Translations under genes and position numbers: made by a program
Notes under the pieces: generated by a model
What the model was told of the DNA's origin: nothing
Database searches by the model: none
The model's input: only the letters and a program-made list of their open reading frames with translations
Virus record (IMG/VR): IMGVR_UViG_2541047679_000008
Reading direction: 5' to 3' (one strand)
DNA from: a virus
Taxonomy: Duplodnaviria; Heunggongvirae; Uroviricota; Caudoviricetes
Length of the DNA: 8,600 bases
Part shown: one piece after another, positions 98 to 7,300 of the stretch
How positions within the stretch are numbered: the first letter of the stretch is position 1
How the letters are laid out: each line of letters opens with the position of its first letter

Positions 98-673
98 CTA
101 CGGCAGTGCTGGCCATTCAATATCCTGTGCAGTTGACGTATCAACACGGTTCAGCAACACCCGATACTTTTTCCAGGCTTCCAGCAATGAGGTTTCTTCC
201 TCCGTTGCGATTTCCAGATCTACAGCATCCTGAAGTGGCGCAATATGCTCACTGGCTACCTGCATCAGGCTGTTTTTTGTTTCTTCCGCCTCTCGGATCC
301 GGAACAGTTTTTCTGCTTCTGCATCTTTCACCCAGGCTGTGCCGTTCCACTTCTGAAACTCCCCTTCCGGCGATAACCAGGTAACATTTTCCGGTAACGG
401 ACCGAGTTCAGAAATAAATAACGCGTCCCCTGACGCTACGTCATAAACCGTTTTACCCCGATGGTCTTCAACGAGATGCCACGATGCCTTATCACTGTTG
501 AAAACAGCCACAAAGCCAGCAGGAATATCTGGTGGTGCAATATCGGTACTGTTTGCTGGCAGACCTGTATGAGGCGGAATATATGCGTCACCTTCACCAA
601 TAAATTCATTAGTTCCGGCCAGCAGATTATAAATTTTTATGGTCCGTGGTTGTTCACTCATTCTGAATGCCAT
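98..673 (-). CDS. tfa: Tail fibre assembly protein Tfa (lambda Tfa-like chaperone), 191 aa
   Basis: Translated ORF ([61 protein letters not shown]...) matches my memory of lambda Tfa almost residue for residue along its length. The ATG at 673-671 overlaps the stf stop codon (TAATG). A GAGG Shine-Dalgarno (plus-strand CCTC at 682-685) lies 8 nt upstream. Confidence 0.93.
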
Positions 674-3636
674 TATGCAAGCCTCACAATATAGTTAAAT
701 GCGATGTTTTTGACGGTGTTTTCCGCGTTACCAGCAGCGTTAACGGTGATGGTGTGTCCATGTGAACCAATCGCAACGGAGTGCGTATGAGCACCAATAC
801 CGACAGTATGCGCGTGTGCACCTGCAGATGCTGCTGTGCCGGACAGTGAATGGCTATGATTACCATCTGTACTGGTATTCGCTAACCACCCCGTAGACAT
901 ACCTACTGAGCCTTGTACACCCCAGGTATTTTGACCTGAGCTTGTATAACCATATTGATAAGTATCTTTAAAAACACTGGGGTTAAATCGACGGCCATCT
1001 CTATGGCTGTGATTACCAGCTGCATTCGTGCTGCCACTTAAACTATGGGTATGCGCACCAGTGTTATTCGTGGATTTAGTGCCGTAATCAAACGACGATG
1101 TGGTTTTCGTCCCCAAATCCGTACTGGATGCGCTGGCGCTGTGGGTATGCGATTTAATGCCGTCCTGTTCCTGAGACAATACGGCCCGACCACTGGCAGG
1201 TTTGCCCTTAATCGTCCAGCCACGCATATCAGGGATCACGCCTGACGGATAAGCGGCTGCAAGTTTCGGGTATGCAGATTTGTCAAAAGTCTGCCCCTGC
1301 ATCAGGGCATAGCCAGACGGAACGGTATCTGATGGCCACGGGATTGGTGCGCCAGGCGGATAAAACTGCTCTGATGGCGTATAGAGTGAATAAACTGTAC
1401 CGTCCGTTAACCCTTCCGGCTTATTAGCAGAATATGCTGGTGACGTATGAATCGTCACGCTGGCATTACTGGTATAATCCCATTGAATATTTACACCAGT
1501 CGCATAATTTCCGATTGCAACGTAAATATCGTAAGTATCACCAGATGTATTGACCCAGGCAAAATTTGTAAACCCTGTCGATGTGCGCTGCCATAAAGCA
1601 CCAGTAATCCCCTTCGGATTACCATTACCTGCACGTAAAACAAGTTCAGATATACCTGCCTGTTGAGGTGACCCCACGTTAAATCCAGCGCCACCAATCA
1701 ACGTAATTGAAACAACAGAACTCGCCTGTGGCATGGTTACCGTTGCTAATTTGAACCAACCAGCACCACCGCTGAATGACATTGTTGTTGAGTTAAGCGT
1801 ACCAATATCTTTCGGCGTCAGTGTTATATCCGCTGAAAGCGCCTTACCATTCACCTTACGGGCAGAAGGTACCCGACCATTCGCATTGTCATTAGCTGCT
1901 TTCACTGCTTTCGGTGTCGCAGCAAGCGTTTCAGATGTGCTGTTGGTTGCACTACTGAGCTGGACAATTCCTTTTTGTGCTGTCGTAGCGTCCTGTGCGG
2001 TGTATTTCCCGTTAGCCAGGTCATACGCGGCCTTAACGGCTTTTGGCGTTGCCGCCTGTGACTCGGAAGTGCTGTTAGTCGCACTGCTGAGCTGAACTAT
2101 CCCTTTCTGTGCTGTCGTTGCATCCTGTGCGGTGTATTTCCCGTTAGCCAGGTCATACGCGGCCTTAACGGCTTTTGGCGTTGCCGCCTGTGACTCGGAA
2201 GTGCTGTTGGTCGCACTGCTGAGCTGTACTATCCCCTTTTTCGTCGTGCTCGCATCCTCAAGCGCCACGGCGGATGCAATATCCTCTGCCCGTTTTGCCG
2301 CTGTCTCGGCGCGCGTTGCCGCGGATTCCGCCGTACTTTTGCTCTGTGCTGCCGCCGTCGCACTGCCAGCTGCCTCTGTCGCCTTCGTGGATGCTGTCGT
2401 GGCGCTGCCCTTCGCTGCGGACGCTTGTCTGGTCGCCTCATCTTTTGAAGCAGACGCAGATGATGCCGATGACGCCGCCGAACTGGCGGACGATGCGGCA
2501 GCCGTTTTTGAGGATTCTGCGCTGGTTTCCGACGCTTTCGCGTTCGTCTCGGATGTCTTCGCTGCGGAAGCAGACCTCGCTGCTGCGCTGGCCTGTACAG
2601 CGGCTTCGCCAGCCTTCGTTGTGGCTGTTGAAGCGGACGATGCAGCACTTTCTGCCGATTTTCCGGCGGCGGTGGCACTGGCTGAGGCCTGCCCGGCATT
2701 TGTTGACGCGGCGCTGGCAGATGAGGCAGCCGCTGTTTTTGAGTCTGCTGCTGCGGAGGCACTCTGTGCTGCTGCCGTCTCAGAAGACTTAGCGTTCGTC
2801 TCGGACGTTTTTGCCGCCTTCGCGGAATTTCCTGCCGCTGTTGCCGAGGAGGCTGCACTACTGGCGCTCGAGGCTGCGCTCGTTTCTGATGATTTTGCCG
2901 CCTCTTTTGAGGCCGCCGCATCCCGGGCTGAGGTGGCAGCTTCTGACGCCTTCGTGGTCGCGGCGGATGCAGAAGTGGCTGCTGATTGTTGTGACGCTGC
3001 CGCATTCGTTTCTGACGTTTTCGCCGCAGCGGCACTGGTAGCTGCCGCGCTTTTTGAGGACTCTGCAGCAGCAGCACTTTTCGATGCTTCACTGGCCTTT
3101 GTTGATGCCGTTCCTGCGCTGGAAGATGCTGACTGAGCCGACGACGCGGCCTGTCCGGCTGACGTGCTGGCTGCGCGTGCTGAGCCTGCAGCATCAGTCG
3201 CATGGGTTGCCGCCTCACGTGCTGATGTGCCGGCATCGCTGGCTGACTTCTTCGCGGCTGCCGTGTTCTGTGCCACCGCGGACGCGTTACGCGCCACCTC
3301 TTCCACCATCAGTTCAAAACGGCGCAGTGCCTCAGGACGGGCATCATCCTCCGTCATGGCACCGAGAAAATCATTCAGCGTACCGGGTCGGGAATCTTCA
3401 TACACGGTGATGGTCCCGGCATGTGACGGCGGGAATCCCTCCACCAACAGAATAACGCTGTACTGCCCGTACTCAACGTCCATGCTGTAACGCCCGGCTT
3501 CATCCGGATTTTCAGAAGCCACCGTGTTCACCAGTACCGTGGTGCTGTTACGCTTTGCCTTCAGTTGAATAGTGCAGTTCTGTATTGGTTTTCCCGCACC
3601 ATCTTTCAGCACACCTGAGATTTTTACTGCTGCCAT
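673..3636 (-). CDS. stf: Side tail fibre protein Stf, about 987 aa, intact and mosaic
   Basis: N-terminus [31 protein letters not shown]... and C-terminus ...[31 protein letters not shown] match lambda Stf as I recall it. The ORF track begins at a GTG at 3642; I prefer the ATG at 3636 because a GGAG (plus CTCC 3643-3646) then sits 6 nt upstream and the product begins like lambda Stf. Stop codon TAA at 675-673. Contains an Ala/Ser/Thr-rich shaft, a 3x 44-aa repeat, a central block with a [19 protein letters not shown] motif, and a C-terminal HxH-rich region. Confidence 0.9.
676..1155 (-). other. Stf C-terminal His-box region with repeated HxH motifs (SHTHS, GAHTHS, GNHSHR, GNHSHS, GAHAHT, GAHTHS, GSHGHT)
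   Basis: Seen directly in the translation of the last about 160 codons of stf. Equivalent HxH repeats in T4 gp37-type long tail fibre tips coordinate metal ions along the trimer axis. Confidence 0.7.
1360..1875 (-). other. Stf central block of about 172 aa ([45 protein letters not shown]...[12 protein letters not shown]) that I do not recall from lambda Stf; probable module swap
   Basis: Flanked on both sides by lambda-like sequence (44-aa repeat upstream, GAPIPWPSD...[24 protein letters not shown] downstream). The DNA here is visibly more AT-rich than the neighbouring Ala-rich shaft. The VNGKALSxDITLT motif is common in other coliphage tail fibres. Confidence 0.6.
1900..2240. repeat. 132-bp direct tandem repeat inside stf: two near-identical units at about 1971-2102 and 2103-2234, plus a diverged partial unit to about 1900
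   Basis: The string gtgcggtgtatttcccgttagccaggtcatacgcggccttaacggcttttggcgttgccgcctgtgactcggaagtgctgtt occurs at 1995 and again at 2127, a period of 132 bp. It encodes three consecutive copies of [44 protein letters not shown], the third diverged to ...[23 protein letters not shown]. Confidence 0.85.
2240..3310. repeat. Low-complexity, GC-rich Ala/Ser/Thr-rich coding region (Stf shaft) with dispersed imperfect repeats encoding KTSETNA-like motifs
   Basis: The translation is dominated by A/S/T/K/E (for example [38 protein letters not shown]). Similar DNA segments recur around 2541-2570, 2791-2820 and 3003-3030. The region spawns long spurious ORFs in other frames on both strands. Confidence 0.7.
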
Positions 3637-3642
3637 ATCCAC

Positions 3643-3646: not shown

Positions 3647-3674
3647 CAAAAAAGCCCGCCTGAACCGGCGGGCT
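3647..3674 (-). terminator. Rho-independent terminator downstream of lom
   Basis: Perfect 7-8 bp GC-rich stem (plus gcccgcc 3654-3660 and ggcgggc 3667-3673, loop tgaacc), followed on the minus-strand transcript by UUUUUU (plus A-run 3648-3653). It lies 27 nt past the lom stop and immediately before the stf ribosome-binding site. Confidence 0.65.
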
Positions 3675-3700
3675 GTCATAACACTGTGTTACCTGGCTAA

Positions 3701-4300
3701 TCAGAACTTATAACCGACACCCACGATGAAACCGTCAGTGCGCCAGTCGCCACTGCCGGAGCCTTCATAAGCAATATCAATGGCCACGGATTCGGTCGGG
3801 TTAAACTGCACGCCAGCTCCCCACGCCAGAGACGTGTTGCTGTGGCGACCGTCATCACTTCCGGTCAGCACATCGTGCTTTTTCCCCTTGTTGTCAGTTA
3901 CGCGAAGATAATCCCCGGAGAAAGTCGACACACGGCTGTAAGCCACACCTGCCATCGCATAAGCACTGAACCATTCATTCACGCGCACAGACGGCCCCGC
4001 CATTACGCTGAACCAGCGGTTACGAACGGAATCTTCATGCCAGCGGGTATCGCTGTAACGGGTCAGCTGGCGATTCTTGTCTCCTGCATAGCTGAATGAC
4101 GTCACCAGCCCCAGTGTGTCCGTAAACTCATAACGGTATTTCACGTTAATCCCGTTCAGATTTTCGCTGCCGGGAGCGTTCGTACGGGCATGAAGATACC
4201 CTGCGCTCAGTGTGGCCTGCTGCTCAGACGCCCATGCAGGCGCACCGGATACGGCCAGACAAATGGCTGCGGACAAAATTGCTGCACAAACTTTACGCAT
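3701..4300 (-). CDS. lom: Lom-family (Ail/Lom/PagC/OmpX) outer-membrane beta-barrel protein, 199 aa, with signal peptide
   Basis: The C-terminal half (...AWGAGVQFNPTESVAIDIAYEGSGSGDWRTDGFIVGVGYKF) matches lambda Lom as I recall it; the N-terminal half differs. N-terminus MRKVCAAILSAAICLAVSGAPAWA looks like a Sec signal peptide with an AxA cleavage site. It ends in the aromatic residue (F) typical of beta-barrel outer-membrane proteins. A GAGAGG Shine-Dalgarno (plus cctctc 4306-4311) precedes the ATG at 4300. Confidence 0.92.
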   Translation of the reverse strand: MRKVCAAILSAAICLAVSGAPAWASEQQATLSAGYLHARTNAPGSENLNGINVKYRYEFTDTLGLVTSFSYAGDKNRQLTRYSDTRWHEDSVRNRWFSVMAGPSVRVNEWFSAYAMAGVAYSRVSTFSGDYLRVTDNKGKKHDVLTGSDDGRHSNTSLAWGAGVQFNPTESVAIDIAYEGSGSGDWRTDGFIVGVGYKF

Positions 4301-4370: not shown

Positions 4371-7300
4371 TCAACGAATACTGATGCCGGAAGCGGCTTT
4401 TTTGGTCACAATCACCGTACAGTCGGTGATATTGCCTGCCCCCTGATTGCCTTTCTGGAAAATCTTAAACTCCAGAGTGACGCTTCCCCTGCCACTCGGC
4501 ATATCAATAACTGCACTGTAACTACCGGGAATGGCCCCTTTAGTTTCTCTGGATGCGATTAATACGCCGTTTTTGCGAACTTCAAAACCATAACCCGTGT
4601 ATCTTGTACCTCCCGGGTTATTACCACTTCCCGGATCGCTATACGCTATTCCGTTAAAGATAATGGGCGGAATAATGATTTGACGGTCAAAGTTATGATC
4701 ATCGCTGATGGTGACTGTAACCGTCCCGTTTGGTGTTTCCGTATTACCCCACGTACCAGCCTGTTTCGGGAATGATTTGGATACAGCTTTAACGAAGTCA
4801 CCTCTGACCTGAGTCGCCTCCAGCATGCCCTTAATCGTACAGTTTTCATTTACCGTGACATTGTTGAGCGTCCCGGAGTTCGCATTCACGTTACCGCTGA
4901 TATCCGCATTTTTCGCCGTCAGCCGCCCGTCCGGTGTCAGGGAAAATGCCGGCGGATTTCCACCGCTGGTAATGGTGGGAGCCGTCAGGCGTTTCAGGAA
5001 CACGTCATTCATGAATATCTGATCACCCTGACCAACAAACATCGGTTTTGTGTTGCCATTTGCAGGATTAATCATCGCAATCCTGTCTGCCGCCAGCAGC
5101 ACCTGACTCTGCATGCCGTCAGGGGTGTTCTCAATACCGGCACCGATACCCGCAATATAAAGGCGTCCGTCCTGCATCTGCTGCAGCTTCACAGCCCACA
5201 TGCTGTTCAGGTTATTATTTGTATCAACCTGAACCTTCTGTATCTGCTGAATTGCCGCACTCTGGTCTTCCAGTTTCTTATTGACGGTCTGTGTTATTTC
5301 ATTGCTGACATCCGTTATGGACGTCCTGATTTCAGTCAGGTCAGGCGCAAGCTGACCGTTATCAATCTGCGTCCACAGCTCCTGAGCCAGATGGGTTTTC
5401 CCTATCTCGCCTTTGAAAAAATCCAGATAGCCTGATGCATCATCACTCGGCTGGCCAACAGCCTCCACGAATGCAGATTTGCCAACGGTGTTCACACTGC
5501 GAACGTAAAAATAATAATCATGGCCCGGTTTGATATTGATACTGGCGGCTATCCAGTACAGTGCCGTACCAAGATAACGCGCGCTGGTTTCAACCTGCCT
5601 GATATCCGCAATCCGCTTTTCTGAGAACCAGAACTCAAACTGTACCGTCGGATCATAAACGGCAAGATGCGGCGTGGCGGTTATCTGAAAATAGCCCGGC
5701 GTCAGCTCAATCCGCGATGGCGCTGCCGGTGCGGCAATCCGGAACGATACCGACGCCGGATCGCCCTGCTGCCCCCACGCATTTACTGCCCGGACTGTCA
5801 GCCTGTAGTTCCCCAGAGCCAGTTGTGTGAAGCGGTAAGTGGTTTCCGTCGTCCGGGCCGTGCTGACCAGCCGCTCACTGCCGTCATCCGCTGTTACGGT
5901 CAGGCGAAGCATGAAACTCACGCCCTTCACCACCTTCGGCGTGTCCCAGCGGGCCAGTACCTGATACTCCCCGCTGTCTGCGGTGACTTCGGCAGTCAGG
6001 TGCTGCACTGCTGGCGGCGTGACACCATTCACCGTGCCGCTCTGGTCGCCGTCAAAGTGCGCCCCGTTATCCACGATAGCTTCTTTTTCCGGTACATGCT
6101 GCACGGCGGTGATAGCATACGTGCCGTCGTCGTTCTCACGGATACTCACACAGCGGAACAGGCGCTGGCGCAGCGTCGGCAGCTTCAGCCCCCATACGCT
6201 GTATCCGGCAACGCCGTCAGGAACACGGCTCACTTTTACCTTCACGCCGTCGGTGACGGACTGGACCTCCACGCTGACCGGATTGCCACTTCCGTCAACC
6301 AGGCTTATCAGCGTGGTACCGGAGGATGGCAGCGTGATTTCACGGTCGAGCGTCAGCGTCCGGGTCTGGCTGTTCACCGCCAGCACGCGCCCGCCGGTGC
6401 TGATCCCCGCATAGTCATCATCGCAGATTTCAATGACATCGCCCGGCACATGGCGAAGCCCTTCCGCACCCACGCTGAAGTCCACGGTCTGCGTTTCCAG
6501 TAGTTCCGTTTTAATCAGCCACAGCCCGGCGCGGTGCGCCTGCCCCCGGCTGGTACAGCCAAAGGCATCCATCTTCGTGACGTTACGACCGTAACGGAGA
6601 ATGGCCTGCGTATCTTCAACAAGCTCTGTCGCCGTCTCCCAGCCGTTATTCGGGTCAATCCAGTTCACCTCAACGGCATTATGGCGGTCCTTCAGGGCGC
6701 TGAAGCTGTAGCGGAACGGCGCGCCATCATCCGGCATCACCACATTACTGCGGTTATAGGTCCACACCTTATCCGACGGTCGGTCCTGCACGAACGTCAG
6801 CGTCTGCCCGTTCCATACCGGCATACAGCGCATCGCCGAGCAGAAATCACTGAGAACATCCCACGCCTTACGCTGTGTGGTCAGGTAGGCATTACAGGTG
6901 ATGCGCGGCTCCGTGCCACCAAAGCCATCCGGCACCGACTGGTCGCAATTCTGGCCGATGACATACAGCGCCCATTTGTCCACATCCGCCGCACCGAGAC
7001 GCTTCCCCATGCCGTAGCGCGGATGGGTCAGCATATCCCACAGACACCAGGCCATGTTGTTGCTGTATGCCGGTTTAAACGTCCCGTCCCAGATACCGCT
7101 GTATTGCCGCGTCTGCGGGTTATAGTTCGATGGCACCTGCAGAATGCGCCCGCGAAGATGATAATTACGGCTCACCTGCTGGCTGCCGAACTGTTCCGAG
7201 TCCACCTGCACGCCGACCAGTGCCGTGTTCGGGTAGCACTGTTTCACATCGATGATTTCGGTGTATGACGACCAGAGCGTTTTGTTCTGCAGCTGGTCTG

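Follow-up and report, generated by a model that had tools for sequence, protein, structure and literature searches.

Where did the middle of a side tail fibre gene come from, and what does it do in the fibre? The question is raised by 8600 nucleotides (nt) of DNA from IMG/VR virus record IMGVR_UViG_2541047679_000008 (Caudoviricetes; 'the window' is this whole stretch), in which the side tail fibre gene stf is close to that of lambda upstream and downstream of a central block. An initial annotation, made from the letters alone, had described positions 1360-1875 as an AT-rich, horizontally exchanged fibre module and had connected such exchange with a change of host range. On our reading the block is probably a portable internal cassette of the trimeric side tail fibre, recombined into a slot of the gene and serving as a nodule of the shaft; an effect of this particular block on host range is unlikely. 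The gene and its parts, with amino acid (aa) positions of Stf counted from the GTG at 3642 and with G+C content at third codon positions denoted as GC3, are as follows.

673-3642, minus strand: stf, the side tail fibre gene, 989 aa from the GTG at 3642 (open reading frame, Pfam, PDB)
1897-2277, minus strand: three Phage_fiber_2 repeats, the upstream conserved flank (Pfam; tandem repeat at 1937-2241)
1361-1900, minus strand: the entire non-lambda segment, Stf aa ~582-761 (blastn gap between matching flanks; protein alignment)
1801-1860, minus strand: VNGKAL linker, a linker motif of 20 aa, aa 595-614 (exhaustive HMMER search, tblastn)
1372-1800, minus strand: all-beta domain of ~140 aa, aa 615-757, the portable unit (HMMER, alignment A2, DNA junctions, AlphaFold2 (AF2) model)
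1075-1360, minus strand: collar region, the downstream conserved flank (86.7% DNA identity to lambda; Pfam Collar at aa 764-811)
676-1074, minus strand: His-rich needle and tip of the T4 gp37/lambda Stf type (PDB 2XGF at aa 747-989; blastn gaps; GC3)

The DNA was compared by blastn with lambda (NC_001416), and the protein was aligned with the 774-aa Ur-lambda Stf, rebuilt by joining orf-401 and orf-314 over the known frameshift. Matches to lambda DNA were present upstream at 3828-2726 (84.7%), 2418-2163 (78.5%), 2126-2031 and 1975-1901, and downstream at 1360-1075 (86.7%) and 822-108 (92.9%); between them, window positions 1900-1361 showed zero similarity to lambda in the same blastn comparison. 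At the protein level, Stf aa 583-761 stand opposite Ur-lambda aa 386-529 with scattered identities only, i.e. 179 aa occupy the place of the 144-aa central segment of Ur-lambda Stf. The lambda-type central segment itself (aa 386-529, VVMDETNRKAPLDSPALTG...GAGENSAFP) was found in this Stf neither by DNA nor by protein comparison. Outside the block the protein aligns well with Ur-lambda, except for an extra shaft stretch, two added fibre repeats and a divergent tip segment. Both comparisons thus bear out the description of a block that is not lambda Stf, set between lambda-like sequences. The in-frame translation of 1360-1875 is indeed Stf aa 590-761 (ending ...SEQFY), and the downstream boundary at 1360 is exact; the upstream boundary at 1875, however, falls ∼25 nt short of the actual one at ∼1900.

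Is the gene then a lambda stf at all? Its Pfam domains are phage_tail_N, three copies of Phage_fiber_2, Collar and Phage_fiber. The N-terminal anchor (PF08400, E = 2e-70, aa 5-137) also matches the solved lambda chain (PDB 9e7m, E = 2.7e-50), while the C terminus carries the Collar (PF07484, aa 764-811) and a needle matching T4 gp37 (PDB 2XGF, E = 2.8e-85, aa 747-989). The gene is preceded by J and lom and followed by a Caudo_TAP tfa gene, collinear with lambda and in concordance with the annotation of Escherichia coli IAI1. By N-terminal domain, locus and tip it belongs to the lambdoid Stf kind; because the test of the central segment fails, it is not the lambda allele proper. The window and Ur-lambda have in common the order J-lom-stf-tfa, the N-terminal anchor, the Ala/Ser-rich shaft, Phage_fiber_2, the collar and the gp37-type needle, and their tfa genes are 92.9% identical in DNA; Ur-lambda Stf differs in having the 144-aa centre, one fibre repeat, a shorter shaft and another tip segment.

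Base composition sets the block apart as well. Its G+C content (GC) is 0.450 compared with 0.62 in the shaft, so the lower GC initially noted is real; the shaft at 2300-2500, then taken for comparison, is nevertheless a confounded comparator owing to its Ala/Ser codons. Ala, Ser and Thr make up 75% of the shaft, and its GC excess lies at codon position 2 (GC2 = 0.805). When codons were simulated from the amino acid sequences with the codon usage of the window's lambda-like genes, the expected GC came to 0.56 (block) and 0.655 (shaft); therefore, the amino acids account for roughly half of the raw contrast. A test at synonymous sites sustains the AT-richness of the block: GC3 is 0.349, against 0.559 in the fibre repeats immediately upstream (Fisher p = 4e-4) and 0.556 in the collar immediately downstream (Fisher p = 1.4e-3), and against an amino-acid-matched expectation of 0.658 +/- 0.035 (z = -8.7). 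The central segment of lambda has a GC3 of 0.493. Both observations that could have spoken against a foreign module, a block present in lambda Stf itself or a GC uniform along the gene, turned out otherwise.

The block had been taken for one module. It has been exchanged, but it comprises two units, of which the second, a beta domain, is the mobile one. The first unit is the linker. P0153, P0157, P0169, P0172 and others each contain 5-21 tandem stretches that match query residues 1-33 (HMMER), and the exhaustive HMMER search revealed many proteins with tandem linker repeats and without the rest of the block. By tblastn the linker was detected in annotated fibres of Vibrio, Aeromonas, Salmonella and Escherichia phages, as well as in a Mycobacterium phage protein of unclear type (annotated as hypothetical/peptidase). 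Hence, the opening motif is common to unrelated fibres, as had been claimed, with a range wider than coliphages. The linker belongs to the upstream context, as JL22, Salmonella and Mu-like fibres differ there.

The beta domain carries the signature GWxK(I/L)ATVxMPQ...GGxG(F/Y)N...E(I/L)V(L/I)RxGNxxPKG...NTSGDxYD(I/V)Y; three columns of alignment A2 are invariant and 10 nearly so. The block had no Pfam match, and aa 615-757 had no PDB match either by single sequence or, at E <= 1, by the 30-sequence profile A2; among PHROGs the domain hit unnamed or 'tail fiber' families only. An AF2 monomer model (22 sequences) is all beta, with mean pLDDT of 58. Its fold matches were generic, and Foldseek against viral models returned the same fibre relatives only. 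In the exhaustive HMMER search we observed 593 cluster representatives (50% identity) at E <= 1e-3 and 83 at E <= 1e-30. With this number of representatives and neither a Pfam model nor a solved structure, the beta domain could merit a curated fibre-domain family of its own.

Representative carriers of the domain, with its location in each protein and amino acid identity to the domain analyzed here, are listed below.

P1-like JL22 Stf: aa 631-808 of 1006, 85%
Mu-like Yersinia phage vB_YpM_6, open reading frame beside hin: aa 1-135 of 291, 86%
Salmonella phage F1055: aa 131-273 of 520, 58%
9g-like siphovirus HdSG1: aa 133-307 of 562, 43%
Felix-O1-like wV8 gp83: aa 473-620 of 848, 41%
T2 gp37: aa 822-924 of 1341, 48%

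The closest copies among isolated phages are those of JL22 and vB_YpM_6 (85-86% aa identity), and their DNA locates the junctions. Identity with JL22 is 92% and unbroken from 1807 to 1075, i.e. over domain and collar, and resumes at 810-109; identity with vB_YpM_6 is 76% and limited to 1794-1390. JL22 thus has the beta domain, collar, tip end and tfa in common with the window as one cassette (92% and 88% DNA identity); it differs upstream, where 'TINGVSFDGSKDIELNPRSIG' stands in place of the VNGKAL linker. In vB_YpM_6 the domain, situated in an invertible segment, runs into a StfR-type distal end and not into collar and needle. The junctions of the moving unit are at aa 612/617 and 751/761; where the DNA similarity begins and ends varies with the partner, which singles out the beta domain as the mobile unit. 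In T2 gp37, aa 822-924 match the core of the domain (48%, E = 4e-29), and the position is within the shaft in both proteins; the sequence behind the domain differs from the collar here, and the domain has the same GC3 as the remainder of the T2 gene. The beta domain is absent from T4 gp37 and gp34.

Along the fibre the domain is internal: in 100 full-length matches a median of 290 residues lie ahead of it and 232 behind (228 behind in this Stf). It is joined to at least five different C-terminal partners (Collar with needle, Gp34_trimer, Peptidase_S74, Gp10_C, StfR-type end), and the N-terminal anchors of its carriers are phage_tail_N, P2-H-type Phage_tail_fib and T-even gp37. Thus, the reading of the block as a recombined fibre module is upheld by breaks of similarity at both ends, by the dip of GC3 at these breaks and by the presence of the domain in unrelated fibres with different neighbours.

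The distant full-length relatives came from HMMER; the word-indexed protein search returned only proteins of up to 301 aa, many of them partial or chimeric gene calls. Some proteins, P0008, P0018 and P0109 among others, have a 91-100% identical block fused to unrelated sequence. P0109 (with the N terminus of J), P0008 (terminase small subunit) and P0018 (antitermination protein) look chimeric and were not counted as architectures; the Pfam domains of P0008 and P0018 agree with their names. Such proteins with odd N termini look like assembly or gene-call chimeras formed at repeated prophage sequence, and could mislead surveys of domain architecture.

How common is the block? With coverage of at least 80% it was present in 1298 of 5426 complete E. 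coli genomes, including O157:H7 EDL933, and it was at least 99% identical in 1219 of the 1419 matching E. coli records. The lambda-type central segment was present in 584 E. coli genomes, with just 96 records at least 99% identical; therefore, the non-lambda allele is the commoner one in E. coli.

From these data one could outline how the block was acquired. Homologous recombination in conserved DNA, that of the fibre repeat on the upstream side and that of the collar on the downstream side, would have brought it into its present slot behind the Phage_fiber_2 repeats and ahead of the collar/needle tip, at the expense of the lambda-type central segment or its equivalent. Recombination of lambda with the stf/tfa regions of Rac and Qin has been demonstrated experimentally (PMC3945230), and the nearest relative of the window is situated at the Qin locus; together these facts support the homologous mechanism. 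The same paper terms stf a well-documented example of old transfer among temperate and virulent phages (PMC3945230). To judge by its low GC3, the block may ultimately derive from a lineage of AT-rich virulent phages (T-even, Felix-O1-like or 9g-like). In virulent carriers the domain and the rest of the gene have equal GC3 (0.22/0.23 in T2, 0.30/0.30 in wV8); in temperate carriers the domain has the lower value of the two (0.349/0.51 in the window, 0.343/0.446 in JL22, 0.252/0.408 in vB_YpM_6). This pattern suggests, and is no more than indicative of, a transfer from AT-rich virulent to temperate phages.

As to function, the fibre would run from the N-terminal anchor through the Ala/Ser shaft, three Phage_fiber_2 repeats, linker, beta nodule and collar to the His-rich gp37-type needle. 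The beta domain would form a nodule of the distal shaft, setting length and geometry and joining the shaft to whichever tip comes next; the needle tip, folded with the help of Tfa, would bind the receptor. The gp37-like needle (aa 747-989) is the expected receptor binder, and the block does not hold the distal position of a receptor-binding domain. The block is internal, is combined with many tips and is near-invariant in E. coli, with the tip being variable; for these reasons we regard it as structural or connecting rather than as an adhesin, and it is probably an internal nodule of the shaft, not the receptor-binding tip.

Several explanations compete with this one, two of them with regard to how the block arose. 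The lambda centre could have diverged past recognition with no exchange at all, its low GC reflecting nothing but amino acid composition. Fibre genes do evolve fast, and Ala/Ser codons do account for roughly half of the raw GC contrast; still, divergence fits poorly with 179 aa standing against 144 aa with no alignable similarity, with a domain 40-86% identical in fibres of unrelated phages and 92% identical in DNA to that of a P1-like phage, and with a GC3 (a measure largely independent of amino acids) of 0.35 against 0.56 in the flanks, 8.7 standard deviations under expectation. We consider this explanation hardly credible. Exchange could also have proceeded by site-specific inversion, driven by the Gin/Cin/Pin/Hin invertases encoded beside fibre genes, instead of homologous recombination. 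Inversion has been named as the probable driver of old stf exchanges (PMC3945230), pinQ is immediately downstream of tfa in the IAI1 prophage and the vB_YpM_6 domain is located in a segment adjoining hin. On the other hand, no gix-like site was found in the window with up to three mismatches, and the block is not surrounded by meaningful inverted repeats, the one weak and distant pair being taken as chance. Moreover, the lambda junctions are inside conserved coding repeats and the JL22 homology is unbroken over domain and collar, as fits homologous exchange, so that inversion appears quite unlikely.

The remaining alternative concerns the role: the block may itself be a receptor- or co-receptor (glycan)-binding domain, in which case its exchange would directly alter host range. 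Fibre shafts of some phages do have lateral binding sites, and the beta domain is both widely distributed and mobile among fibres. Yet the domain is internal in its carriers, with a median of 232 residues behind it; it is coupled to at least five distal ends, and here a complete gp37-type needle, together with Tfa, comes after it. An adhesin under diversifying selection would not be expected to be at least 99% identical in 1219 of 1419 records, and the variability is found in the tip, at 859-1074. Nor do the generic fold matches, obtained with a model of low confidence, favour binding, which we regard as unlikely. One could speculate, with a similarly small chance of being right, that the beta domain belongs to a large, uncurated family of mobile fibre domains with its own function: the domain would then provide a lateral site for glycans, and thereby a second specificity, or act as a dedicated adapter, its conserved edges favouring the swapping of tips.

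The reading of the block as an acquired structural cassette meets several difficulties of its own. More E. coli genomes carry the block than the lambda-type segment, so that lambda could be the derived allele. Composition is the single line of support for the direction of transfer, and the structural role is deduced from position and partners; the AF2 monomer model, given its mean pLDDT, is weak.

Mosaic tail fibres, formed by horizontal exchange between temperate and virulent phages, have been textbook knowledge since about 1990; the classical mosaic tail fibre genes are those of Montag 1989, Haggard-Ljungquist 1992 and Sandmeier 1994 (as cited in PMC3945230). The phenomenon seen here, the classical modular evolution of fibre genes, is thus already known; all that is added is the note of an uncurated domain family. 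More recently, the RBPseg fibre atlas defined 'mobile pseudo-domains', mobile internal domains of unknown function in several fibre classes (PMC12143355). The block resembles the classical mosaic fibres in being a fibre segment common to unrelated temperate and virulent phages, and the RBPseg pseudo-domains in being mobile and internal. Engineered Stf chimeras have been described as well (PMC11338833); natural splice points for the design of chimeric Stf would be the end of Phage_fiber_2, DIG|TLNS, and ...QFYP|PGAPIPW. Beyond annotation the significance is small, about one in four complete E. coli genomes having the allele; with a family defined for the beta domain, many 'phage tail protein' entries could be annotated better.

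Besides the central block, we saw another departure from lambda in the needle, where neither lambda nor JL22 has DNA similar to the stretch 859-1074. This stretch is a second swapped cassette, and it is more likely to determine specificity than the central block. GC3 is 0.30 over aa 861-940 of the tip (window 823-1062), covering most of the non-lambda stretch; with GC3 low both in the block and in the tip stretch, the dips of GC3 coincide with the loss of similarity to lambda.

The shaft differs from that of lambda in length. Phage_fiber_2 is present in three 44-aa copies (132-nt period, 92% matches) compared with one in lambda Stf. The blastn matches 2126-2031 and 1975-1901 both fall on the single Phage_fiber_2 repeat of lambda; since all three copies map to this one repeat, the shaft has been lengthened by tandem duplication. 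Further upstream, Stf aa 307-411 (2410-2724, minus strand) make a surplus of 105 aa in the Ala/Ser-rich shaft relative to Ur-lambda, with no blastn match to lambda; the surplus looks like an expansion of a low-complexity coiled region.

The other genes of the window, identified as indicated, are listed in the direction of transcription.

8600-7929, minus strand: truncated tail assembly gene I (open reading frame and protein family)
7868-4371, minus strand: J (open reading frame and protein family)
4300-3701, minus strand: lom (Pfam Ail_Lom, E = 1e-119)
98-673, minus strand: tfa, tail fibre assembly chaperone partnering the needle tip (Caudo_TAP, E = 3e-44; 92.9% DNA identity to lambda tfa)

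All long open reading frames with protein-family support in the window are on the minus strand, and the window is the I-J-lom-stf-tfa region of a lambdoid prophage of the Qin locus. Its closest whole-window match among complete E. coli genomes had 98.8% identity. In E. coli IAI1 the corresponding region is at the Qin locus (ydfJ-ydfK-pinQ-tfaQ), with tfa annotated as tfaQ; the invertase gene pinQ is immediately downstream of tfaQ (L009 2410-3000, just past window position 1). The IAI1 prophage has a single stf-tfa set and is, therefore, without an invertible pair.

Lambda similarity is also lost in the genes ahead of stf. The J gene has 95% DNA identity to lambda J as far as window position 5372; its C-terminal third (4371-5371) has one patch of 76% identity to lambda (5202-4815), the last ∼150 codons are without match and GC3 drops from 0.70 to 0.54. 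With the C-terminal third mostly unmatched, the receptor-binding end of J is not that of lambda. The lom gene (3701-4300) codes for a full-length Ail/Lom protein, as judged by Pfam; its matches to lambda lom DNA are short (4161-4103 and the 3′-end), indicating that it is a different lom allele.

The true start of stf is probably the ATG at 3636, behind GGAG, which would give a protein of 987 aa. Between lom and stf, immediately ahead of the ribosome binding site of stf, a GC-rich hairpin is followed by a T run (3648-3675, minus strand; cccgccggttcaggcgggctttttt). By its sequence the hairpin looks like a putative intrinsic terminator; if it is one, expression of stf would require read-through or antitermination. 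Finally, two long open reading frames, 2132-3136 on the plus strand and 2229-3236 on the minus strand (334 and 335 aa), are antisense to or out of frame with stf over the Ala/Ser-rich shaft; both most likely arise as a side effect of a coding sequence that is GC-rich and repetitive. A comparable antisense frame, orf206b, is annotated at the equivalent place of the lambda record.

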